The notes below the pieces were generated by a model. It made no database searches, was not told the DNA's origin, and saw nothing but the letters and a program-made list of their open reading frames with translations. The translations under genes were made by a program, and so were the position numbers. From NCBI GenBank assembly GCA_003241645.1, contig QFOX01000004.1, positions 183 through 64,182 of the forward strand: a stretch of DNA of 64,000 bases, read 5' to 3'. This document shows, in pieces, positions 3,023 through 58,372 of this stretch. The stretch's first letter is position 1; each line of letters starts with the position of its first letter. This stretch comes from Azospirillum brasilense. GTDB taxonomy: Bacteria; Pseudomonadota; Alphaproteobacteria; Rickettsiales; UBA3002.

Positions 3023-4021
3023 CTACGCCGCCTCCTGCGTTTGGCTTTGCACCCACGCTTCGCAGCAGGCTTTCGCCATGGCGCGCACGCGGCCGATATA
3101 GGCGGCGCGCTCGGTCACGCCGATAACGCCGCGCGCATCCAGCAGGTTGAAACGGTGCGATGCCTTGATGCACTGGTCGTAGGCGGGCAGGGCGAGGGTC
3201 GCGCTGCGCGCATTGCTGTGCGCCAGCAGGCGTTTGCATTCGGCCTCGGCGGCATTGAACTGCTCGAACAGCTGCGCGGTGTCAGCCGCCTCGAGGTTGT
3301 AGGCGCTGAACTCGACCTCGTTCTGCTTGAACACGTCGCCGTAGGTGAAGTGAGTGGGGAGTGGGGAGTGGGGAGTGGTGGGTGTTGATGCACTGCCTTG
3401 CGTAGCGCCATCGCTGCGCGAGCCGCTGGCGGCGGGGGGGAGCGAAGCGTGGGGGGTAAGGCCCCCCTCAGGTACAAAATTCCACCCCAGGTCGTACACA
3501 TTCTCAACACCCTGAATGTACATGGCGAGGCGCTCAAGCCCATAGGTCAGCTCGCCGGAGATGGGGCTGCATTCGATGCCGCCGACCTGCTGGAAGTAGG
3601 TGAACTGGGTGACTTCCATGCCGTCGCACCAGACTTCCCAGCCAAGGCCCCAGGCGCCCAGCGTGGGGCTTTCCCAGTCGTCTTCCACGAAGCGGATGTC
3701 GTGCTTTTTGGGGTCGATGCCCAGCTCCACCAGCGAATCGAGGTACAGCTGCTGGATGTTGTCGGGCGAGGGTTTCAGGATCACCTGGAACTGGTAGTAA
3801 TGCTGCAGGCGGTTGGGGTTCTCGCCATAGCGGCCATCTTTCGGGCGGCGCGAAGGCTGCACATAGGCGCAGTTCCACGGCTTGGGGCCCAGCGTGCGCA
3901 GGGTGGTGGCCGGGTGGAACGTGCCTGCCCCCACTTCCATGTCATAGGGTTGCAGGATCACACAGCCCTGACGCGCCCAGTAGTTCTGGAGGGTCAGGAT
4001 AATATCTTGGAACGATTTCAT
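3023..4021 (-). CDS. glyQ: Glycyl-tRNA synthetase alpha subunit carrying an in-frame repeat insertion
   Basis: [42 protein letters not shown]... is the canonical GlyQ. An extra ~40 residues lie between VYDLGWN and FTYGDVF. Confidence 0.95.
3352..3379. repeat. Tandem heptamer (gagtggg)x3 plus one imperfect copy inside glyQ
   Basis: Read directly: gagtggg gagtggg gagtggg gagtggt. It encodes part of [12 protein letters not shown] on the minus strand. Confidence 0.9.
3385..3471 (-). repeat. 87-bp GC-rich palindromic repeat, family A, copy in glyQ
   Basis: The reverse complement ctgaggggggccttaccccccacgcttcgctcccccccgccgccagcggctcgcgcagcgatggcgctacgcaaggcagtgcatcaa matches 13154..13239 at 80 of 87 positions without gaps (hand alignment). 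Confidence 0.9.
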
Positions 4022-4129
4022 GCGCGCGTGTGTAGCGCGCGGGGGGGCGGAACGCAAGCGCAACAACGCATTTCTGGTGGCGGGCGTTCGCAGAACAAGA
4101 GAGGGAGAGCCGAGGCTCTCCCAATCCCG

Positions 4130-10835: not shown

Positions 10836-10984
10836 GTCATCCCGGAACATTTTTCAGGAGAAAAATTTCTCCGGGATCCAGACCTCACGGCGCTCAGCAG
10901 AGCGCCGTCGTCAAAAAAGTCTGCTGACTTTTTTACCGTGGATTCCCCTATGATTTCGCCTGCTGGCGAAATCCGGGGAATGAC
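10836..10984. repeat. 149-bp three-hairpin MITE-like element (family C) between etfB and etfA
   Basis: gtcatcccgg...ccgggatcc hairpin, a central cggcgct/agcgccg hairpin, and gattcccc...ggggaatgac. About 80% identical to 14481..14630. Same architecture as 34136..34283. Confidence 0.85.
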
Positions 10985-11004
10985 AATTGTTGAAGGAGTT
11001 TAAC

Positions 11005-12405: not shown

Positions 12406-14160
12406 ATGAACACCGCCCCGGACCGCCTGAAATTAGCCCTCGCGCAGATGAACCCCACCGTGGGCGACCTTGCGGGCAACGCGCTGGCCATTGTGCGCAC
12501 GGCGCAGGAAGCCGCCGCGCATGGCGCGGATCTGGTGCTGTTCCCCGAAATGGCGCTGACCGGCTACCCGCCGGAGGATCTGATTCTGGTGCCGGCCTTC
12601 CGCCAGGCCGCGTGGGACGCGGCGCGCCAGATCGCGAAGGATACGCAATCGCTGCCGTGCGACCTCATCTTCGGCAATTTGTGGGAAGAGGGCGCGGCGA
12701 TTTACAATGCCTCGGTGCTGGCCAGCGGCGGGCGCTTAAGCCTGCTGCGCGCCAAGCACGCGCTGCCGAATTACGGCGTGTTCGACGAAATGCGCGTGTT
12801 CGCCCCCGGCCCGGAGCCGGAAGTGGTGGAGTGGCGCGGCCTGAAATTGGGCCTGCTGATTTGCGAAGAGGTCTGGCAGCCGGGTGCAGGCGTGGCGCTG
12901 GCGCAGGCGGGCGCCGAACTGCTGCTGGTGCAGAATGCCAGCCCCTACCACATTGGCAAGGCCAGTGAACGCAAAGCCGTGGTGGATGCGGTAGTGAAGG
13001 CGACCGGCCTACCGCTGGTGTACCTGAACCTCGTGGGTGGGCAGGACGAGCTGGTGTTCGATGGCCGCTCCTACGCCGTCGGGGCCGACGGGGCCGATGC
13101 CGCGCGGCTGCCCGCCTTCTGCGAAAGCCTTGCGGTGCTGGAATGGAAGAAAACTGAGGGGGGCCTTGCCCCCCACGCCTCGCTTCCCCCCGCCGCTAGC
13201 GGCTCGCGCAGCGATGGCGCTACGCAAGGGAGCGCATCACGTTGGGTATGTGTTTCTGGCCCTATGGAGCCCGTGCGCGGCGACGAAGAAACGATCTACC
13301 ACGCGCTGGTGTTGGGCCTGCGCGATTACGTGCGCAAGAATGGCTTCCCCGGGGTGGTGCTGGGGCTTTCCGGCGGCATTGATTCGGCGTTGTCGGCCGC
13401 CATCGCGGTGGATGCGCTAGGCGCGGATAAGGTGCTCGGCCTGCGGCTGCCCAGCCCCTACAGCTCGGCCGATAGTCTGGAAGACGCACAGGCGCTGGTG
13501 GAATTGCTGGGCATGCAGACCCATACCGTATCCATTGAGCCGGGCATGCAGGCGGCCAACGCTGCGCTTGCGCCGTTATTCGCCGGTCGCGCCCCCGACA
13601 CGACCGAGGAGAATATCCAAGCCCGCCTGCGCGGCCTGACGCTGATGGCGATGAGCAACAAGTTCGGCCACATGCTGCTGACCACGGGCAATAAGTCTGA
13701 GATGTCGGTGGGCTATGCCACGCTGTATGGCGATATGGCGGGTGGTTTTTCGGTGCTGAAGGACGTGTACAAAACCACCGTGACCCGGCTTTCCAGCTGG
13801 CGCAATGGCTTTGCCGACATCGCGCGGCTGGGGCTGCTGGGGCCTGCGGGCCCGGTCATGCCGGAGCGCAGCATCACCAAGCCGCCAAGTGCCGAGCTGC
13901 GGCCCGGCCAGTTGGATCAGGATTCGTTGCCGCCCTATGCCGTGCTGGATACGGTGCTGCGCGGGTTGATCGAGCGGCAGCTTTCCGTGCATGAGTTGAT
14001 CGCCGAGGGCATGGAGCCCGCCGTGGTGGAAAAGGTCGCCAAGCTGGTGTGGGCGGCGGAATATAAACGCCGCCAAAGCGCGCCGGGCGTGAAGATCACG
14101 CCCATGGCGTTCGGCCGCGACCGCCGTTGGCCCATCACCAACCGCTGGAAATTCCAGTAG
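12406..14160 (+). CDS. nadE: Glutamine-dependent NAD+ synthetase carrying an in-frame repeat insertion
   Basis: N-terminal CN-hydrolase domain (LKLALAQMNPTVGDLAGN). C-terminal PP-loop LGLSGGIDSAL. The insertion [27 protein letters not shown] sits in the inter-domain linker. Confidence 0.95.
   Translation: MNTAPDRLKLALAQMNPTVGDLAGNALAIVRTAQEAAAHGADLVLFPEMALTGYPPEDLILVPAFRQAAWDAARQIAKDTQSLPCDLIFGNLWEEGAAIYNASVLASGGRLSLLRAKHALPNYGVFDEMRVFAPGPEPEVVEWRGLKLGLLICEEVWQPGAGVALAQAGAELLLVQNASPYHIGKASERKAVVDAVVKATGLPLVYLNLVGGQDELVFDGRSYAVGADGADAARLPAFCESLAVLEWKKTEGGLAPHASLPPAASGSRSDGATQGSASRWVCVSGPMEPVRGDEETIYHALVLGLRDYVRKNGFPGVVLGLSGGIDSALSAAIAVDALGADKVLGLRLPSPYSSADSLEDAQALVELLGMQTHTVSIEPGMQAANAALAPLFAGRAPDTTEENIQARLRGLTLMAMSNKFGHMLLTTGNKSEMSVGYATLYGDMAGGFSVLKDVYKTTVTRLSSWRNGFADIARLGLLGPAGPVMPERSITKPPSAELRPGQLDQDSLPPYAVLDTVLRGLIERQLSVHELIAEGMEPAVVEKVAKLVWAAEYKRRQSAPGVKITPMAFGRDRRWPITNRWKFQ
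13154..13239 (+). repeat. GC-rich palindromic repeat, family A, copy in nadE
   Basis: ctgaggggggccttgccccccacgcctcgcttccccccgccgctagcggctcgcgcagcgatggcgctacgcaagggagcgcatca. Same frame and orientation relative to its host gene as the glyQ copy. Confidence 0.9.
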
Positions 14161-14480: not shown

Positions 14481-14630
14481 GTCATCCTCGAAAAATTTTC
14501 AGCAGAAAATTTCTTCGGGGATCCAGACCACACGATGGCCAGTAGGCCATCGTCGTCAAAAAATATCTTCTGACATTTTTTGCGTGGATTCCCCTATGAT
14601 TTTGCCTGCTGGCAAAATCCGGGGAATGAC
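14481..14630. repeat. 150-bp three-hairpin MITE-like element (family C) upstream of gltX
   Basis: gtcatcctcg...cggggatcc, a central cgatggcc/ggccatcg hairpin (compensatory changes versus the etfBA copy), and gattcccc...ggggaatgac. Confidence 0.85.
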
Positions 14631-14659
14631 GATACGGAAGAGGCCTTAGAGGATTTTTT

Positions 14660-16006: not shown

Positions 16007-16011
16007 TGCCC

Positions 16012-16361
16012 GTCATTCCAGCGAAAGCTGGAATCCATGAGGCATGATGCAGCACTCCTACCTGTATATCATGGCAAGCAAGCTGCATGGTACACTCTAC
16101 ATTGGGGTGACCGCCGATTTGGTAAAGCGCGTGTATGAGCATCGTACTGGGATGGTTGCAGGGTTTACCAAGAAATACCACGTGCACATGCTTGTATATT
16201 ATGAGATGCACGAAGATATAACGCAGGCCATCCAGCGCGAAACGCAAATGAAGGCGTGGAAGCGAAGGTGGAAAATTGAACTTATTGAGAAGCAGAATCC
16301 AGCATGGGAAGACCTGTATGCGTCCATTCTCTGATTGGATTCCAGCTTTCGCTGGAATGAC
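16012..16361 (+). mobile_element. Candidate minimal mobile unit: GIY-YIG gene bracketed by perfect 26-bp inverted hairpin repeats
   Basis: 16012-16037 gtcattccagcgaaagctggaatcca and 16336-16361 tggattccagctttcgctggaatgac are exact reverse complements. The unit fills the gltX-cysS gap and its interior is AT-richer. Confidence 0.5.
16044..16334 (+). CDS. GIY-YIG nuclease family protein (YhbQ/UPF0213-like, nuclease domain only)
   Basis: SYLYIMASKLHGTLYIGVTADLVKRVYEHRTG...QRETQMKAWKRRWKIELIE. GIY/YIG, Arg and Glu positions are as in the family. Confidence 0.85.
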   Translation: MMQHSYLYIMASKLHGTLYIGVTADLVKRVYEHRTGMVAGFTKKYHVHMLVYYEMHEDITQAIQRETQMKAWKRRWKIELIEKQNPAWEDLYASIL

Positions 16362-16367
16362 GGTACG

Positions 16368-17750
16368 ATGATCAAACTTTCCAACACCCTGACGCGCGGC
16401 GTGGAGCCGTTTGCCCCACTCGACCCTGCGCATGTAAAAATGTATGTGTGCGGACCGACCGTGTATGCGCGCCCGCATATCGGCAATGCGCGCTCGGTGG
16501 TGGTGTATGACGTGCTGGCGCGGCTGCTGCGCCACGACTTCCCGAAGCTCACCTTCGTGCGCAATATTACGGATGTGGACGATAAAATTAACGCGGCTGC
16601 CATCGAGCGCGGCATCTCCATTCAGGCGCTGACCGACGAGGTGACCGCGCAGTTCCACGCCGATATGGGTGCATTGAATTGCGCCAAGCCGGACGTGGAG
16701 CCCAAAGCCACCGAACACATCGCGCAGATGATCGCGATGATCGAAACGCTCATCGTGCGCGGCCATGCCTATGCAGCGCAGGGCCATGTGCTGTTCGACG
16801 TGCAGAGCAACCCGGATTATGGCGTGCTCAGCCGCCGCAACGCGCGGGACATGATCGCCGGTGCGCGCGTGGAAGTGGCGCCTTACAAAAAATACCCCGG
16901 CGATTTCGTGCTGTGGAAACCCGCCAGCGAGAAAGACGACGCGAGCAGCAAGTTCGACTCGCCATGGGGCGTGGGCCGCCCCGGCTGGCACATCGAATGC
17001 TCTGCCATGAGCGCCACGCATTTGGGCCATGATTTCGACATCCATGGCGGTGGGTCGGACCTGATGTTCCCGCATCATGAGAACGAGATTGCACAAAGCC
17101 GGTGCGCGCATGCGGGCTCGCATTACGCGAAATACTGGGTGCATAACGGCTTTCTTACCGTCAACGGCGAGAAGATGAGCAAGAGCCTCGGCAACTTCAT
17201 CACCGTGCATGATTTGTTGGAGCGCGGCGTGAAGGGCGAGGTGATCCGCTTCGCGCTGCTTTCCACGCGCTACAACGAACCGCTCGATTGGAGCGACAAG
17301 CTGCTCGCCGATGCGGGCAAGGTGATGGATAAGCTCTATCGTAAAACTACCGATGTCATTCCCGCGCAGGCGGGAATCCATGATATAGGCGTGGCAGCGG
17401 AGGCAATCATGGATCCCGGCCTTCGCCGGGATGACGTATCTAAAGAACTTATGGCTGCCTTGCGCGATAACCTGAACACGCCGAAAGCACTGGCCATCCT
17501 GCAAACGCTGGAAGGCGACGAACTGCTGGCTTCAGCCCAGTTCATGGGCCTGCTGCAACAGCCTGCCGACCAATGGTTCCAGGGCGAAGCGGGCGACGAT
17601 GCCGCCGCCATTGAAGCGCAGATCGCCCAACGCAACGCCGCCAAGAAAGCGCGTGACTTCGCCACGGCTGATGCGATCCGCGAGGCGCTGAAGGCGCAGG
17701 GCATCCTGCTCGAAGACGGGCCGCAGGGCACCAGCTGGCGCCGCGCGTAA
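16368..17750 (+). CDS. cysS: Cysteinyl-tRNA synthetase carrying an in-frame repeat insertion
   Basis: MIKLSNTLTRGVEPF..CGPTVYARPHIGNARS (HIGH) and KMSKSLGN. An 81-bp hairpin repeat is translated as VIPAQAGIHDIGVAAEAIMDPGLRRDD. Confidence 0.95.
   Translation: MIKLSNTLTRGVEPFAPLDPAHVKMYVCGPTVYARPHIGNARSVVVYDVLARLLRHDFPKLTFVRNITDVDDKINAAAIERGISIQALTDEVTAQFHADMGALNCAKPDVEPKATEHIAQMIAMIETLIVRGHAYAAQGHVLFDVQSNPDYGVLSRRNARDMIAGARVEVAPYKKYPGDFVLWKPASEKDDASSKFDSPWGVGRPGWHIECSAMSATHLGHDFDIHGGGSDLMFPHHENEIAQSRCAHAGSHYAKYWVHNGFLTVNGEKMSKSLGNFITVHDLLERGVKGEVIRFALLSTRYNEPLDWSDKLLADAGKVMDKLYRKTTDVIPAQAGIHDIGVAAEAIMDPGLRRDDVSKELMAALRDNLNTPKALAILQTLEGDELLASAQFMGLLQQPADQWFQGEAGDDAAAIEAQIAQRNAAKKARDFATADAIREALKAQGILLEDGPQGTSWRRA
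17355..17435 (+). repeat. 81-bp double-hairpin repeat (family D) inside cysS
   Basis: gtcattcccgcgcaggcgggaatccat ... ggatcccggccttcgccgggatgac. Exactly 27 codons. Confidence 0.9.
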
Positions 17751-24708: not shown

Positions 24709-24790
24709 GGCGAGGCCAGTAGGCCGAGCGAGCCATCAGCCCGCGAAGCGGCGCACCATTGGGAGCGCAGGAGCGCGAGCAGGGTGCAGC
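24709..24790. repeat. Family B-related repeat in the rpsD upstream region
   Basis: The core ggccgagcgagccatcagcccgcgaagcggcgc (24722-24754) matches 42782-42814 inside rnpB. Confidence 0.75.
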
Positions 24791-38750: not shown

Positions 38751-39113
38751 GCTTTGCGCCGCATGGCGGGCTGGGGCGTTGCGGCGCGATTGCGTCACTC
38801 GGTCACGTACTAGCTGTACGCTCCCTCGTTCGCATCGCTGGCGCCTGCCATCCCATCCATGCTGCATCAAGGCAACCCACGTTCACAGCTTGGTGCTGCA
38901 ATTCCGTGGGTGCATCGGGGTGGGTAACCTACCAAAAATCCGGCAGACGTGCCAGCGCAAAGCGCCTTTTTGCCTTCCTGTGTTATAATGAAGCCAAAAC
39001 AATATCTTCAATGAAAATAACTGGCGGTATGTTCAGTGGGGTGGTGGATAAAATGCGCTGGCGTTGCGCCGGGCGAGGGGGTATGAGGCTGCCCTCACCA
39101 AGGAATCCTCGCC

Positions 39114-39998
39114 ATGCCGCCCATTGCCATTGCCGCCGCTCTACTCGTTGCCCTGTGCTGGGGCGGCAATTTCTCGGCCAGCAAATACGCGATGATGGAT
39201 TTCCCGCCGTTCCTCACGGTCATCCTGCGGTTCGTGTGCGTCAGCGTGCTGCTTGCGCCCATCGCGCTGCGCCAGCGCCCATGGCCGCGCCTGCGCGACA
39301 TGGCGTTCATTGCGCTCACGCTCATCGTGCTGCATTTCGCGCTGATCTTCGTGGCCATGCAGATGGGGCTCACCATCACCTCGGTGATCGTGGCAACACA
39401 AATGGGCGTGCCGTTCTCGTGCATGGTGTCGGCCGCGTTGTTCAAGGATTATCTCGGCCCGTGGCGCAGCATGGGGTTGATGGTGGCCTTCATGGGCGTG
39501 CTGATGGTGGCGCTGACCAAGAATGCTTCCGACCATTGGGGCGCGTTCATGCTGGCCATGTTCGGCGCGTTCGCGTGGTCGAGCGCGAACATCTACATGA
39601 AACGCATGAAGCCCACGCCCGTGGCCTCGCTGCTGTTCTGGCCGGGCGTGCTGTCGCTGCCGGTGCTGCTGGTACTTACGCTGATCTTCGAGCAGGACCA
39701 GATCGCCATCATCCGCAACGCGGCATGGACCAGCTGGGCAGGCATTGCCTACAGCACGGTGCTGTCGTCGCTGGTGGGCTATGGGCTGTGGAACTGGCTG
39801 ATCGCCAAATACCCGCTCAGCCAGGTGGTGCCGTTCTCGCTGTGCGTGCCCATCGCGGGCATTGCCGGGGGTGTGCTGCTGTTCAACGAGCCGCTGACCG
39901 GGCAGATCCTCGGTGGCGCCGCGCTGACTATCGTGGGCGTGGGCATCATCGCCATCCGCCGTCCGAAAATGGCGGAGCTGGGCAAAGATGCAAGTTAG
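39114..39998 (+). CDS. EamA/DMT family transporter
   Basis: About 10 TM helices. AAALLVALCWGGNFSASKY at the N-terminus and a duplicated EamA-like layout. Confidence 0.8.
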   Translation: MPPIAIAAALLVALCWGGNFSASKYAMMDFPPFLTVILRFVCVSVLLAPIALRQRPWPRLRDMAFIALTLIVLHFALIFVAMQMGLTITSVIVATQMGVPFSCMVSAALFKDYLGPWRSMGLMVAFMGVLMVALTKNASDHWGAFMLAMFGAFAWSSANIYMKRMKPTPVASLLFWPGVLSLPVLLVLTLIFEQDQIAIIRNAAWTSWAGIAYSTVLSSLVGYGLWNWLIAKYPLSQVVPFSLCVPIAGIAGGVLLFNEPLTGQILGGAALTIVGVGIIAIRRPKMAELGKDAS

Positions 39999-40000
39999 AT

Positions 40001-40098
40001 GGGAAGGGGGCGTGCCGCCGCCCTTCGCACCTTCGGTGCTGACCCCCTCGTTTCGCTGCGCTCACGGCTCGCGCAGCTTCGGCGCTACGCAAGGGTTC
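40001..40098 (+). repeat. Family A variant repeat (intergenic)
   Basis: gggaagggggcgtgccgccgcccttcgc...ccccctcgtttcgc...ggctcgcgcagcttcggcgctacgcaaggg. Aligns with 58276..58372 and with the 3' half of the glyQ and nadE copies. Confidence 0.8.
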
Positions 40099-42592: not shown

Positions 42593-42638
42593 GCGAAAGC
42601 GGCGCGAAGCATCGCACAGTATGTGCGATCTGCGGAGC
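42593..42638 (+). repeat. Family B hairpin repeat inside rnpB helix P3
   Basis: gcgaaagcggcgcgaagcatcgcacagtatgtgcgatctgcggagc. The stem is atcgcac/gtgcgat. Confidence 0.85.
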
Positions 42639-42765
42639 AAAAAAATCCAACATCTCCCCGAGGAAAGTCCGGGCTCCACGGAACACGGTGGCGGGTAACG
42701 CCCGCCCGGCGCAAGCCGAGAGACAGTGCCACAGAAACAAACCGCCTTTTTCGCGCGGTACTGGC

Positions 42766-42848
42766 GGCAGCGAGGGCAGCAGCCCGAGCGAGCCATCAGC
42801 CCGCGAAGCGGCGCGAAGCATCGCACAGCATGTGCGATTTGCGGAGCA
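42766..42848 (+). repeat. Family B repeat (long form) inside rnpB helix P12
   Basis: ...gcccgagcgagccatcagcccgcgaagcggcgcgaagcatcgcacagcatgtgcgatttgcggagc. The 3' part matches 42593..42638 and the 5' part matches 24722..24754. Confidence 0.85.
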
Positions 42849-43124
42849 CCAATAAGGTAAGGGTGAAAAGGTGGGGTAAGAGCCCACCGCGCCGCTGGTA
42901 ACAGCGTGTGGCCAGGCAAACCTCACCGGGAGCAAGACCAAATAGGCGTGCAGTGGTTCAATCCACGGGCCGTTCCGGGCCGCACGCGGGTAGGTTGCTT
43001 GAGCCATGCAGCAATGCATGGCCTAGATGAATAGCCATCCATCCCAGCAATGGGGGGACAGAACCCGGCTTACAGGCCATCTGGTGTTAACGCTTTGTTC
43101 ATGCGTGGCTGCTAACCTCGGCCT

Positions 43125-55920: not shown

Positions 55921-57389
55921 ACCAGAAGATCAAATCCTTCCCCATTGCCAACCGCATGTCGCTGGATGTGGGCACGCTGCATTTCGTGGGCATCGGCGGC
56001 ATCGGCATGAGCGGCATTGCCGAGGTGCTGCATAACCTTGGCTACAAGGTGCAGGGCTCCGACATGGCGGAAAGCTATGTGGTGGAGCGGCTGCGCAAGA
56101 ACGGCATCACGGTGATGATCGGCGCGCACACGGCCGAGAATATCGCTGGTGCGTCGGCGGTCATTATTTCCAGCGCGGTGAAGTCCGACAATCCGGAAGT
56201 GGTGGAAGCGCGGGCGAACCGCATTCCCATCGTGCGCCGGGCAGAAATGCTGGCGGAGCTGATGCGCCTGAAATCCACCGTCAGTGTGGCGGGCACGCAC
56301 GGTAAAACGACCACCACTTCGCTGATCTCGACGCTGTTCCTCGCGGCCGACAAGAAGCCGACCGTCATCAATGGCGGCATCATCAACGCCTATGGCACCA
56401 ACGCCATCAAGGGCGAGGGCGACTGGATGGTGGTGGAGGCCGACGAGTCGGACGGCACGTTCATTCGCATTCCCAGCACCGTGGCGGTGGTCACGAACAT
56501 CGACCCCGAGCATCTCGACCATTACGGCGATTTCGACAGCCTGAAAGCCGCATTCAAACAATTCCTCGACCAGCTGCCCTTCTATGGGTTCGGCGTGCTG
56601 TGCATCGATCACCCGGAAGTGCAGGCGCTGATGGCGAAGATCGTGGATCGCCGCATCATCAGCTACGGCACCAGCCCGCAGGCCGATGTGCGCGCGGTGA
56701 ATATCCGCCAGCAGCCGGGCGGCCAGCTGTTCGACGTGGAGATCGCCGACCGCGTGAGCGGCGAGGTGGCCCTGCTGAAAGACGTGCTGCTGCCCATGTA
56801 TGGTGCGCACAACGTGAAGAACGCGCTCGCCGCCATTACCGTGGCGCGCGAAGTGGGCATTGCGGATGCGTTCATCCTGAAAGGCCTGCGTGAGTTCGGC
56901 GGGGTGAAGCGCCGCTTCACCAAAACCGGCGAAGCGCACGGCGTGACCGTCATCGACGATTACGGCCACCACCCGGTGGAAATTGCCGCCACGCTGAGCA
57001 GCGCGCGCCAAGCGGTGGAAGCCACGGGCGGGCGTGTCATCGCCGTCATCCAGCCGCACCGCTACACGCGCCTGAGCCACCTGTTCAACGAATTCTGCAC
57101 CTGCGCCACCGACGCCGACACCGTACTGGTGACCGATGTGTACAGCGCGGGTGAAGAGCCCATCGAGGGCGCGGACCGCGACCATCTCGTCGAAGGCATG
57201 CGTGCGCATGGCCACCGCCATGCCATTGCCCTGCCGGGCGAGGGCATGCTCGCCGAGATCCTTGCCGACATTGTGCAGCCCGGCGATTTTGTGGTGTGCC
57301 TTGGCGCGGGCAGCATCAGCAAATGGGCGGGGGCGCTTCCTGCGCAGCTTGAGCCATTGCTAGCTAAAAAGCTGAAAGAACGTGCGTAA
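55917..57389 (+). CDS. murC: UDP-MurNAc--L-alanine ligase
   Basis: [17 protein letters not shown]...[13 protein letters not shown]...DDYGHHP. Confidence 0.95.
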
Positions 57390-58269
57390 CGACCTTCCCG
57401 AGATCCGCGGGCAATACCGCTTCGATGCACCGTTGGCCAAGACCACCTGGTTCCAGGTGGGCGGCGCGGCGGATGTGCTGTTCAAGCCGGCCGACACGCA
57501 AGACCTTGCCCATTTCCTGAAGCATAAACCCGCCGATCTGCCCGTGACCGTGCTGGGGGTGGGCAGCAACCTCATCATTCGCGATGGCGGCATTGAAGGC
57601 GTGGTTATCAAGCTGGGGCGCGGCTTCACGCAGGCGGAGCTTCGCGATGGCGAGATCGAGGCGGGTGCCGCGCTGCTGGATGTGCATCTGGCCCGCTTCA
57701 GTGCCGATCAGGGCTGCGCCGGGCTTGAATTCTTCGCGGGCATTCCGGGCACGGTTGGCGGTGCGCTCGCCATGAACGCCGGGGCCTATGGCCGCGAAAC
57801 GAAGGATTGCCTGCTGCGCGCCGAAGCGGTGACGCTGGACGGCACCATCGTGATGCTGGAGCTGGACGAGATGCGCTACAGCTACCGCCATTATGGTGGG
57901 CCCGCGGGCCTTATTTTTACGCGCGCATGGTTCGCCACCACCCCGGATGCGCCGGAAGCCATTCACGCGCGCATCGCTGAAATTCAGGCGAGCCGCGAAG
58001 CCACCCAGCCCGTGCGCGAACGCACCGGCGGCAGCACCTTCAAAAACCCCGAGGGCCACAAAGCATGGCAACTGGTGGATGCGGCAGGCTGCCGCGGCCT
58101 GACCATGGGCGGTGCGCAAATTTCCGACCTGCACTGCAACTTCATGCTCAACACAGGTAATGCGACCGCCGCCGAGCTGGAAGCGCTGGGCGAAGCAGTG
58201 CGCACCCGCGTGAAGCAGCATGCCGGTGTGCAGCTGGAGTGGGAGATCAAGCGATTGGGGCGTTTTTAA
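57382..58269 (+). CDS. murB: UDP-N-acetylenolpyruvoylglucosamine reductase
   Basis: GTG start. [15 protein letters not shown]...VLGVGSNLI...[18 protein letters not shown]...GSTFKNP. Confidence 0.93.
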
Positions 58270-58275
58270 GCCGTG

Positions 58276-58372
58276 TGAAGGGGGCGTGCCGCCGCCCTTC
58301 GCTCGCGAAGGCTCGCTGACCCCCTCGCTTCGCGGCTCGCGCAGCGATGGCGCTACGCAGGCAATGCATCAA
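58276..58372 (+). repeat. Family A variant repeat in the murB-ddl gap
   Basis: tgaagggggcgtgccgccgcccttcgc...ccccctcgcttcgcggctcgcgcagcgatggcgctacgcaggcaatgcatcaa. The 3' 50 nt are near-identical to the glyQ and nadE copies. Confidence 0.85.

Follow-up and report, generated by a model that had tools for sequence, protein, structure and literature searches.

The glyQ gene in the 64-kb stretch of DNA analysed here (the window) raises the question of how a repeat that also occurs elsewhere in the same DNA can lie inside the gene of an aminoacyl-tRNA synthetase while the reading frame stays open. A sequence-only reading of this locus had described the segment as a dispersed palindromic repeat of 87 bp, inserted in frame, and had likened its behaviour to that of the Rickettsia palindromic elements (RPEs). 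Here we ask what the glyQ segment is, where else it is found and how it may have arrived.

Results

A repeat shared by glyQ and nadE

In a repeat search of the window, which has a GC content of 62%, the glyQ copy (minus strand) and the nadE copy (plus strand) were found to be reverse complements of each other over 86 nt, with 93% identity (80/86); the computed alignment thus bears out the 80 matching positions that had been counted by hand. Both copies lie on the sense strand of their host and are read in an identical frame, as had also been stated, and the peptide EGGL(A/T)PHASLPPAA(S/R)GSRSDGATQ is common to GlyQ, NadE and the ETF-QO encoded at a related locus (L044). The two intergenic segments that had been pointed out as relatives are real members of the same family, here called family A, though more distant (79-89% identity over the alignable part); they lie 4-7 nt beyond stop codons and have the common 3' module CGGCTCGCGCAGCnnnGGCGCTACGCA with a variant 5' hairpin. 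In total the window holds four copies in 64 kb, two genic and two intergenic (Table 1). With the glyQ 87-mer as query, zero further matches at up to three mismatches were obtained in the window (expectation 0 from 100 shuffles). At the DNA level, in-gene repeats were detected in glyQ, nadE, glyS and cysS of the window, and all four are in frame. The rnpB gene of the window also carries a repeat, from another family.

Table 1. Positions of the host genes, of the parts of the glyQ insert and of the family-A copies in the window
Feature	Position	Strand	Remarks
glyQ host gene	3023..4021 (ORF 3023-4066)	-	likely ATG gives 332 aa; PF02091 homologues
Insert tail in glyQ	3350..3385	-	36 nt; 7-nt tandem repeat, not the dispersed element
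Family-A element in glyQ	3386..3471	-	in frame; nhmmer match 3384-3474, E = 3e-27
A/T-rich leader TTTGTACCT (codons F-V-P)	3470..3478	-	just 5' of the element; missing from empty glyQ alleles (alignment of L038 and L034)
nadE host gene	12406-14160	+	584 aa
Family-A element in nadE	13154..13239	+	between the CN-hydrolase and NAD-synthase domains
Intergenic family-A variant	40003..40098 (repeat match from 40001)	+	sense orientation; 5 nt past the TAG stop of the plus-strand gene 39087-39998
Intergenic family-A variant	58276..58372	+	sense orientation; 7 nt past the TAA stop of the plus-strand gene 57376-58269

The inserts occupy the place of short ancestral segments

The closest relative for which glyQ is available (L038) encodes a GlyQ that is ~99% identical outside the loop, with ~4 residue differences, K179G among them, and it has the 8-residue loop DAKPGEVQ where the GlyQ of the window has 43 residues. 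The glyQ of L034 is also empty, and in 78 of 120 GlyQ relatives the loop measures 2-13 residues. In the E. coli protein (7eiv_A) the insert site holds the 8 residues SDGPLGKT, in keeping with the figure of about 8 that had been given for it. These orthologues show the long loop of the window to be derived and not ancestral, as had been proposed. The description as an 87-bp in-frame insertion stands as far as the frame is concerned; the insertion itself is not a clean one, since 129 nt (3350-3478, 43 codons) stand in place of 24 nt (8 codons), a net change of +105 nt, and the tail of the insert is not the dispersed element. This tail contains, at 3352-3378, a perfect 7-nt tandem repeat of 3.9 copies (unit CTCCCCA on the coding strand, 100% matches by TRF). 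It has no counterpart in the nadE copy, and in two relatives (L040 and L041) the glyQ site is filled by inserts built of 7-mer arms. We read the tail as the putative leftover 3' arm of an older hairpin-type insert. As for the leader, A/T-rich stretches also precede the nadE copy of the window (AAGAAAACT), the nadE copy of L045 (AAATTACCT) and the intergenic copies, and the leader is probably a component of the family-A element.

The insert has the junctions ...VPE|GGL... and ...PTH|FTY..., and the gene halves on both sides are collinear and in frame. In GlyQ it separates the catalytic domain from the C-terminal helical domain, at the point where the phmmer alignment to 7eiv_A breaks (between K192 and T193, with query residues 188-224 unmatched). 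In the AlphaFold model of GlyQ, residues 181-225 are coil and pLDDT falls below 50 at 190-215; the insert is thus predicted to form a disordered loop between the two domains.

P0122 and P0123, the closest NadE relatives (93-95% identical to the protein of the window), have an empty site, which is likewise consistent with insertion. Compared with the empty alleles of L035 and L036, the window nadE has a net gain of 78 nt. Among NadE relatives the site is empty in 89 of 116, and the empty segments are uniformly 40 residues long. In one filled/empty pair, L045 and L046, the nadE genes share 96.8% nucleotide identity, and exactly 87 nt separate their lengths. The dN/dS values, 0.10 for glyQ (against L038) and 0.06-0.13 for nadE, show from coding-sequence comparison that both hosts are under purifying selection (~0.1).

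A composite element with a conserved hairpin

The modules of the family-A unit (~75-90 nt) are a short leader rich in A/T, a hairpin made by a G-run and a C-run, a spacer containing another C-run that matches, a GCCGC..GCGGC box and the 3' module GCGCAGCnnnnGCGCTACGCA. The last four bases of this module, CTAC, are complementary to the GTAG tag that marks classical REPs. All copies terminate in ...GGCGCTACGCA; for loci L001-L032 this invariance is partly an artefact, because the search pattern demanded it, and it also holds in the four copies of the window and in L044, L038 and L045, all detected independently of that pattern. Beside the CTAC tag a stem CGCCGCAAGC/GCTTCGGCG can be drawn, which is imperfect in the window's own copies. 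The first hairpin is kept through compensatory variants (GGGGGG/CCCCCC, GAAGGGAT/ATCCCTTC, CGAGGGAAC/GTTCCCTCG and AGGGGAC/GTCCCCT), and the second C-run varies in step with them.

The term palindromic, used in the sequence-only reading, suits the element poorly: it has two short local hairpins, its folding energy is not better than that of shuffled sequences (z = -0.9 to -1.5), and hairpin-bearing is the better description. No terminal inverted repeats were found, the ends of the element not being complementary. Neither were target-site duplications seen at the junctions of L045/L046 or of the window and L035, where 9-22 nt of target are replaced instead; across the three filled/empty comparisons, the stretch of target lost to the element measures 9-24 nt. 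An Rfam search of the window at the gathering threshold gave no family for the element, and neither did four loci searched at E values up to 0.1.

Dispersal in related genomes

Outside the window, 32 family-A loci were found in four other related MAGs, most copies being intergenic, and with the four copies of the window and the further host genes they bear out the claim of a dispersed repeat. The ETF-QO gene of L044 carries the same element in the same frame, the CarB gene of L002 has a related copy with the same frame in its 5' half, and the genes for RsmE and inositol monophosphatase (IMPase) in other MAGs are probably hosts as well. By crude gene calls, 13 of the 19 scorable intergenic copies begin just past the stop (≤10 nt) of an upstream ORF on the same strand. 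Nearly all copies are single units, and one inverted pair was seen (L004, 3824-3878 and 3918-3966).

The copy in the L044 ETF-QO gene is ~96% identical to the nadE copy of the window over 73 nt, whereas between the window and L038 the orthologous nadE copies share only 81% identity, in host genes that are ~80-85% identical. At the sequence level, this higher identity across genes than between orthologues gives signs of an active, homogenised family. A metagenome scan with the 5' hairpin returned three loci, the ETF-QO copy among them, which is far too few for a census; the doubled element peptide, used as a protein query, gave no match and six word-sharing candidates, a result that says little on the frequency of the peptide. 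The database labels of the genomes disagree (Azospirillum brasilense for the source MAG; Rickettsiales bacterium or Alphaproteobacteria bacterium for the relatives), and none is Rickettsia.

Filled and empty alleles at shared sites

Different repeat families occupy the glyQ, nadE and cysS sites in different relatives. In the NadE tree at least 14 alleles filled by family A each stand beside an empty sister allele, and filled and empty alleles are likewise interleaved in the GlyQ tree; both are neighbour-joining trees of single conserved proteins. For glyQ the loci are related as (window,(L033,L034)), with the window and L033 filled and L034 empty, and for nadE as ((window,L035),L038), with the states filled, empty and filled.

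Changes in the flanks were seen beside several inserts. The flank GWNFVP is common to filled GlyQ alleles of non-sister lineages, and in NadE a serine at position +5 occurs in 8 of 15 filled and 14 of 89 empty alleles (Fisher p = 0.003, a post hoc test). Between L045 and L046 nine mismatches fall within 37 nt beside the insert, with ~220 nt on either side identical, and this cluster therefore favours allele transfer or break repair over repeated transposition. Around the glyQ insert, a sliding-window comparison gave no signal of an imported recombination patch past ~20 nt. The upstream motif CTGGnnTGGAA, present at both sites, had suggested an ectopic conversion from nadE to glyQ, which was rejected because the leaders AAGAAAACT and AATTTTGTACCT differ.

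At this same position in nadE, four relatives carry a DUF559 (PD-(D/E)xK endonuclease-like) domain between palindromic arms, and a cargo-less form of this element occupies the glyQ site on the same contig. A tblastn search for DUF559 found it only in the nadE of L039, and no endonuclease was tied to family A.

Discussion

The confirmed identity of the two genic copies, the derived state of the loop, the independent assemblies considered below and the dispersal of the repeat together mean that the RPE-like behaviour claimed for this locus is real: a dispersed repeat has genic copies in frame, and relatives have the empty sites. The glyQ and nadE repeat is a real new example of behaviour known from Rickettsia and other REP-type repeats.

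In our view the glyQ segment is probably one copy of a non-autonomous REP-type selfish repeat whose in-frame genic copies survive in loops and linkers and whose filled alleles also recombine between strains. Family A usually comes to rest a few bases past a stop codon, in sense orientation, and an enzyme acting in trans would copy it to new sites; the most plausible candidate would be a RAYT-like HUH tyrosine transposase that acts on DNA hairpins. Now and then a copy would enter a gene, and selection would spare only in-frame, stop-free copies whose Gly/Ser/Pro/Ala-rich disordered peptide falls in a surface loop or an interdomain linker, where it may well be neutral. In glyQ the element has taken the place of the ancestral 8-residue loop, at a spot that would already have held an older hairpin insert, and the whole would be read out as a disordered loop of 43 residues. 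Filled alleles would then pass between related strains by homologous recombination, with short flanks carried along. The replacement of target bases counts against this explanation, because clean transposition would not yield it, and so does the lack of terminal inverted repeats and of target-site duplications at the L045/L046 junctions. In addition, a tblastn search for a RAYT gene with E. coli RayT, a single query of limited sensitivity, gave nothing below E = 0.26 in 488 kb of genome fragments (the window and all loci), the best match being MetX (homoserine O-acetyltransferase), and Pfam assigned no transposase or endonuclease to the 10 unassigned ORFs of the window.

The patchy distribution of filled alleles could also mean that the repeat persists at re-occupied landing pads: the filled glyQ and nadE alleles would have been gained from a filled template, by homologous recombination or by site-specific double-strand break repair, with co-conversion of the flanks. 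The interleaving of filled and empty alleles in the trees and in the relationships of the loci points this way, as do the flank changes that accompany the inserts (K179G, the L045/L046 mismatch cluster, the serine at +5 of NadE), the DUF559 element at the nadE site with its cargo-less form at the glyQ site in four relatives, and the occupation of the cysS site by different elements in different genomes. However, the trees were built by neighbour joining from one conserved protein each, the flanks were tested post hoc, no endonuclease is linked to family A and no imported glyQ patch extends past ~20 nt. Family A has moreover clearly spread to other genes and to a large number of unrelated positions between genes, so some homology-independent copying mechanism must exist. 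As the sole explanation, allele transfer is possible and on balance unlikely; it accounts for the spread of filled alleles and not for the origin of the first copy, and it therefore complements, rather than replaces, the REP-type repeat as the main explanation. A bolder version is that a few codon-precise landing pads in core enzymes of this clade (the loop between the GlyQ domains, the linker between those of NadE and a loop of CysS) are serially re-occupied by unrelated hairpin repeats, that some lineages have an unspliced in-frame DUF559 cassette in similar arms, and that filled alleles spread like homing elements with flank co-conversion while staying in the mature protein. We offer this tentatively and hold it to be rather doubtful; if true, the landing pads would be a homing-like selfish system that can do without splicing because disordered linkers are targeted.

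That the element is instead kept by the host seems improbable to us. It would then be a structured RNA or DNA signal (a stabiliser of mRNA 3' ends, a terminator or a protein-binding site), its genic copies or their peptide having been recruited to regulate glyQ and nadE or to serve as flexible linkers. The covariation in the first hairpin and the second C-run would fit, as would the use of one frame in GlyQ, NadE and ETF-QO, the sense bias and the position of copies directly past stop codons, which are also seen for REPs acting as RNA elements (PMC3733652). Yet the hairpin covariation is equally expected under recognition by a mobilising enzyme, the closest relatives lack the genic copies and have otherwise unchanged proteins, other relatives have unrelated sequences at the same sites, the peptide is predicted to be disordered, and the element neither matches Rfam nor folds better than shuffles. 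Far less credible is a segment that is never translated, whether removed (as an intein or small intron) or passed over in a programmed ribosomal bypass of the kind found in T4 gene 60 or in the yeast mitochondrial 'byp' elements. A G/C hairpin does stand at the start of the insert, but in every case examined the net change is a multiple of three with no stop in the used frame (+105, +78 and +87 nt, and the glyS and cysS inserts), and a removed segment would have no reason to keep frame. Introns of group I or group II are longer than 87-129 nt, and no pair of take-off and landing codons encloses a stop. The glyQ insert also lacks the junction residues of inteins: its N-terminal junction has no Cys/Ser/Thr, its C-terminal junction lacks His-Asn with a following Cys/Ser/Thr, and it contains no Cys. 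It is just as hard to believe, and largely refuted, that the loop is ancestral and was lost elsewhere, or that a repeat was collapsed into the gene during assembly. The window does come from a MAG (PZP86790.1), and repeats are a classic source of chimeric contigs. Against this, the empty alleles keep a homologous 8-residue loop, DAK(E/P/D)G(E/Q)(V/P)Q, across the clade and its outgroups, E. coli has a loop of the same length, the empty NadE segments have one uniform length, and the glyQ halves around the insert are collinear and in frame. Independent assemblies of other metagenomic samples (L033, L038, L044 and L045) have the same element in the same in-frame arrangement, which speaks against the misassembly that had been considered with the first description.

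If the glyQ segment is the REP-type repeat that we favour, the RPE phenomenon of selfish repeats within enzyme genes extends to an uncultured, GC-rich lineage of Alphaproteobacteria for which metagenomes are the only source. The filled and empty alleles form clean pairs for study (GlyQ ~99% identical outside the loop, nadE 96.8% at the nucleotide level), and they show where GlyRS-alpha, NadE and CysS can accommodate 25-60 additional residues, which is of use for protein engineering and for understanding the origin of new loops. For annotation, long odd loops in proteins from MAGs may be repeats and not errors. That different families recur at shared sites, and that one such site also has a version bearing an endonuclease, gives a testable lead on how sites are chosen and inserts retained.

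Comparison with known systems

The closest parallel in behaviour is offered by the RPEs, of which R. felis has 728, with 85 in ORFs and 3 in RNA genes (PMC1166351). Like them, family A is a short dispersed repeat found both between and inside genes of an alphaproteobacterial host, with genic copies in a consistent frame that add a peptide to housekeeping enzymes, here including aminoacyl-tRNA synthetases; RNA-gene copies have their counterpart in the different repeat family in rnpB. Unlike the RPEs, which are AT-rich and ~100-150 nt long, family A is GC-rich and ~75-90 nt long, and it has a CTAC/GTAG-type tag, whereas the RPEs of R. conorii end in CGTC (PMC3733652). The host here is free-living-looking, 62% GC, uncultured and not Rickettsia, and several unrelated families occupy the same codon-level sites in different relatives. 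Homology to RPE-1 to RPE-10 (Ogata et al. 2000, 2002, as cited in PMC10969869 and PMC1166351) is unlikely, to judge from the GC-rich composition and the CTAC end tag. The contrast with Rickettsia drawn in the sequence-only reading stands for the GC-rich setting and loses some of its novelty, because intragenic GTAG/CGTC REPs have already been described in GC-rich bacteria, namely Opitutus terrae, Thauera and Xanthomonas (Di Nocera et al. 2013, PMC3733652).

In structure, family A comes nearer to the GTAG REPs and REPINs. It shares with them a short imperfect hairpin beside a GTAG/CTAC tetranucleotide, a position shortly after coding regions, where the neighbouring genes are unidirectional or convergent, and occasional in-frame copies coding for 20-30 residues; in Xanthomonas recB, too, different REPs lie at about one site in related species (PMC3733652). 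On the other hand, family A is longer and composite, with an extra 5' hairpin and a repeated C-run, it occurs mostly as single units and not as head-to-head dimers, its junctions replace target bases, and the 488 kb sampled gave no RAYT gene. MITEs such as ERIC, BOX, Correia/NEMIS and those of Anabaena, which make in-frame fusions (review PMC10969869), are likewise small non-autonomous repeats tolerated inside unbroken ORFs; family A differs from them in having neither terminal inverted repeats nor target-site duplications.

Homing endonuclease genes and inteins resemble family A in their site-specific, patchy presence in conserved genes of close relatives and in the apparent co-conversion of flanks, and a DUF559 domain sits at the very same nadE site in some relatives. 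Family A, however, has no enzyme or splicing motifs, stays in the protein and is widely dispersed. Ribosomes jump over the mitochondrial byp elements, which can do without a preserved frame, whereas family A always preserves it, and we know of no sequence relation between family A and either these elements or the mitochondrial GC clusters. What family A has in common with them, and with the coding palindromes described in mitochondrial genes, for example those of Nematomorpha (PMC6649704), is that GC-rich hairpin elements have invaded the protein-coding genes of an alphaproteobacterium-derived genome.

Family A in the window

The sequence-only reading of this DNA held that an 87-bp palindromic repeat, behaving like Rickettsia palindromic elements (RPE), lies in frame in glyQ and matches a segment of nadE in the same frame and orientation. 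A repeat search of the window recovered the two segments (see the table) as reverse-complement copies of 86 nt with 93% identity (80/86); both are sense to their host gene and share one frame, in which the peptide begins EGGL(T/A). The related intergenic copies that had been proposed were also found, 79-89% identical across the alignable part; they have in common the 3' module CGGCTCGCGCAGCnnnGGCGCTACGCA, and their 5' hairpin is a variant form. Elsewhere in the window the 87-mer finds no near-exact match, and shuffled sequence is expected to give none either.

The element is dispersed, as described, but does not form a long palindrome. Folding it as a single strand yields a G-run/C-run hairpin of 6-7 bp plus a small hairpin at the 3' side, and the energies do not beat those of shuffled sequence (z = -0.9 to -1.5). 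Across the 36 copies compared, the first hairpin is kept via compensatory variants (GGGGGG/CCCCCC, GAAGGGAT/ATCCCTTC, CGAGGGAAC/GTTCCCTCG, AGGGGAC/GTCCCCT), and a second C-run, further 3', varies in step with it. The last four bases of the 3' module are CTAC, complementary to GTAG, the tag by which the larger REP superfamily is defined (PMC3733652), and an imperfect stem can be drawn beside the tag. Family A has no terminal inverted repeats and no Rfam match.

Inserts and associated features in the window and in related loci (L-numbers) and proteins (P-numbers)
Feature	Position	Strand	Description
glyQ ORF	3023-4066	minus	332-aa GlyRS alpha chain from conserved ATG; PF02091 homologues
nadE	12406-14160	plus	second host gene of family A
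Family-A copy in glyQ	3386-3471	minus	repeat search, paired with 13154-13239
Family-A copy in nadE	13154-13239	plus	between CN-hydrolase and NAD-synthase domains
Family-A intergenic copy	40003-40098		starts 5-7 nt 3' of upstream plus-strand gene's stop codon
Family-A intergenic copy	58276-58372		starts 5-7 nt 3' of upstream plus-strand gene's stop codon
Lipoprotein-like ORF	1899-2867	minus	322 aa, between glyQ and panD (1435-1953); no Pfam match
glyS palindrome	132-193	minus	62 nt, GTCATGCTGAGCGTAGCGAAGCATC...GATCCTTCGCGTTGCTCAGGATGAC, CGTC-tag type, in frame
cysS element	17355-17435	plus	81 nt, palindromic, ATTCCCGCGnnnGCGGGAAT type, in frame (VIPAQAGIHDIGVAAEAIMDPGLRRDD)
Units related to cysS element	1309-1338, 16011-16040		between genes
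rnpB	42616-43088	plus	RNase P RNA (RF00010, 259.8 bits), 473 nt
rnpB insert	about 42753-42845		~93 nt, P12 loop
rnpB duplicate	42597-42639, 42806-42848		95% identical
Family B, other copy	24710-24754		non-coding
Family C	10836-10987, 14481-14633		~150 nt, intergenic, 77-88% identical
glyQ hairpin inserts	L040 10547-10624, L041 9348-9431		7-nt tandem-repeat arms
Family B in nadE	L035 1261-1342; also L036		in frame, another nadE site
NadE with DUF559	P0216 (L039 1-1271), P0169, P0188, P0195		718-755 aa
GlyQ-site insert type			QSPVAGHQSPV...GDWRLETP, 7-mer hairpin type
GlyQ-site insert type			PSPLRGGLGRG...PPPNLPREGGG
GlyQ-site insert type	P0002		family A

Empty and filled alleles

That the glyQ segment is an insertion and not an ancestral loop is borne out by the relatives, 78/120 of which have a loop of 2-13 residues at this position, most commonly the 8-residue DAKEGEVQ. 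In E. coli GlyQ the loop is likewise 8 residues long, and the alignment of that protein to the window's breaks exactly there, at K192/T193. L038 is the nearest relative with obtainable glyQ DNA (91-92% nucleotide identity; about four residue differences outside the loop). Its GlyQ has KWNDAKPGEVQFTYGDVF, again 8 residues, where the window reads GWNFVPE..., so that 129 nt (3350-3478) replace 24 nt and the gene is longer by 35 codons (105 nt). The tail of the insert is a perfect 7-nt tandem repeat, similar to a single arm of the hairpin inserts built from 7-mers that L040 and L041 carry at this site, which suggests that family A may have landed in an older insert, replacing part of it.

The L040 and L041 inserts are local hairpins with an A-rich loop (example arm: (CAGCCGA)x3 ... 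then its inverse) and not dispersed repeats, having no second copy within 20 kb; slippage or hairpin expansion are possible sources. The top-scoring GlyQ match, P0001 (418 aa, on a 1952-nt contig), has ~125 residues duplicated internally and appears to be a chimera assembled from two strains, not a real protein. As for gene order, the 322-aa ORF next to glyQ is common to the window and L038 and absent from L033, L034, L039 and L041; panD and glyS directly follow glyQ in L033 and L034, a 38-aa ORF intervenes first in L039 and L041, and a 246-aa ORF lies between glyQ and panD in L040.

At nadE, the segment is an uninterrupted 40 residues in 89/116 aligned relatives, as it is in the closest two, P0122 and P0123 (93-95% identical; DNA in L035 and L036). 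A filled (L045) and an empty (L046) allele make an even cleaner pair, being 96.8% identical and different in length by exactly 87 nt. Family B is in frame at a different nadE site in L035 and L036, reading LWEE[SEPAEPAMSPRSGAKGRSEVRSVATKN]IYNAS, the family-A site there being empty.

Misassembly is not tenable, because the in-frame arrangement recurs in sequence assembled independently from different samples. Splicing out or bypass of the segment is very unlikely, since every examined insert (+105, +78 and +87 nt, glyS, cysS) changes length by a multiple of three with no in-frame stop, and a segment that is removed has no need to keep the frame; the insert also has no intein junction residues. 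We infer that the insert is translated. An AlphaFold model of GlyQ (120 homologues; mean pLDDT 82) places residues 181-225 as coil between the last catalytic-domain strand and the first C-terminal-domain helix, with pLDDT <50 at 190-215. Purifying selection on the two host genes is strong (dN/dS 0.10 for glyQ, 0.06-0.13 for nadE).

Hot spots and proposed spread of filled alleles

About 42/120 relatives carry 20-60 extra residues at the GlyQ site, of many unrelated sequences, and other families also occupy the nadE site. Filled and empty alleles are interleaved in the GlyQ tree and in the NadE tree, the latter with at least 14 family-A-filled alleles, each with an empty sister. Locus relationships contradict simple vertical inheritance of the inserts: (window,(L033,L034)) has glyQ states filled, filled, empty, and ((window,L035),L038) has nadE states filled, empty, filled. 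Junctions are unclean, with 9-24 nt of target replaced, and no target-site duplication was seen at filled/empty junctions.

Changes in the flanks accompany the inserts. K179G is among the roughly four GlyQ substitutions between window and L038, and GWNFVP is common to almost all filled GlyQ alleles; L045 and L046 have 9 differences within 37 nt beside the insert and zero over about 220 nt either side; Ser at +5 is enriched in filled NadE (8/15 vs 14/89, p = 0.003, post hoc test). We read these changes as pointing to filled alleles that would pass from strain to strain through homologous recombination, taking short co-converted flanks along, in addition to a distinct copying process by which new sites would be seeded. 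The case for several families re-using one site in core enzymes, and for allele-level spread, is suggestive.

The cysS site is a third hot spot, with an unrelated insert (PSKGEDGRG...PPPNLPLQGGG) in L037 and just a short SPVASHQSPV in L045 and L046. The glyS palindrome adds ~15 residues (LCHAERSEASAEILR) and is absent from five relatives.

A search for mobilising enzymes gave no RAYT homologue in 488 kb (window and loci) with E. coli RayT as query, and no transposase among ten window ORFs of no assigned function. In four relatives a DUF559 domain (PF04480; PD-(D/E)xK-like, endonuclease-like) sits in frame at exactly the family-A nadE site. The arms of this cassette are palindromic (PSPxxGGLGxG ... 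PPPNLPxEGGG), and cargo-less arms occupy the glyQ hot spot (P0010) on the same contig as a DUF559-bearing NadE. No DUF559 linked to family A was found, and a literature search gave no report of an in-frame DUF559 in NadE.

Family A across relatives

The window NadE is 100% identical to PZP86790.1, from the NCBI MAG that is the source of the window and is labelled Azospirillum brasilense. Scanning species-representative genomes with the 3' module extended the dispersal to 32 loci, spread over four MAGs (three carry the label Rickettsiales bacterium, one Azospirillum sp.; GC 50-64%). Among these loci, L021 shows synteny with the 38.7-49 kb part of the window, with identity of about 65-67%. The copies are mostly intergenic and, by crude gene calls, 13/19 scorable ones lie <=10 nt 3' of an upstream ORF on the same strand. 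One copy is within CarB (L002), another probably within an RsmE-like methyltransferase (L001), and a third, antisense, probably within inositol monophosphatase (L012). Scanning metagenomes for the 5' hairpin added L044, where family A lies inside ETF-ubiquinone oxidoreductase in the same orientation and frame, as extra residues relative to porcine ETF-QO (2gmh). This copy is about 96% identical to the window nadE copy over 73 nt, whereas identity between the host genes of these organisms is only about 80-85%, and that between the orthologous nadE copies of window and L038 only 81%; the pattern fits a family that may be held uniform by recent copying or conversion.

The MAG labels conflict (Azospirillum brasilense, Azospirillum sp., Rickettsiales bacterium, Alphaproteobacteria bacterium) although the loci are syntenic (ETF, zf-CHCC, HIG_1_N, Usg, glyQ-panD-glyS-PPDK), and at least some are probably wrong.

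Other repeats in the window

The length of rnpB is due to an insert in the P12 loop, composed of family B, a dispersed repeat distinct from family A, and a 43-nt duplicate of the rnpB upstream region/5' end; rnpB of L021 has no such insert. The family-C copy at 14481-14633 behaves as an apparently recent insertion, because L035 and L037 are without it at the matching intergenic site.

Comparison with known systems

The finding of the glyQ insert was real and its overall interpretation correct. Like RPEs, of which R. felis has 728, with 85 inside ORFs and 3 inside RNA genes (PMC1166351; review PMC10969869), family A is a repeat found in frame within genes; host, composition and end tag set it apart, and by these it probably does not belong to the RPE families. 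A further match is with intragenic REPs carrying GTAG or CGTC tags, which Di Nocera et al. reported from Opitutus, Thauera, Xanthomonas and R. conorii, among them different REPs at nearly one position of recB (PMC3733652). Family A shares tag and position with GTAG REPs but not their usual dimer organisation, the 488 kb searched yielded no RAYT homologue, and its lack of terminal inverted repeats and target-site duplication separates it from MITEs. Family A is a new repeat family showing already known behaviour; what goes beyond the literature read is the suggested re-use of codon-precise sites by multiple families, in several core enzymes and throughout an uncultured clade, along with the signs of allele-level spread.
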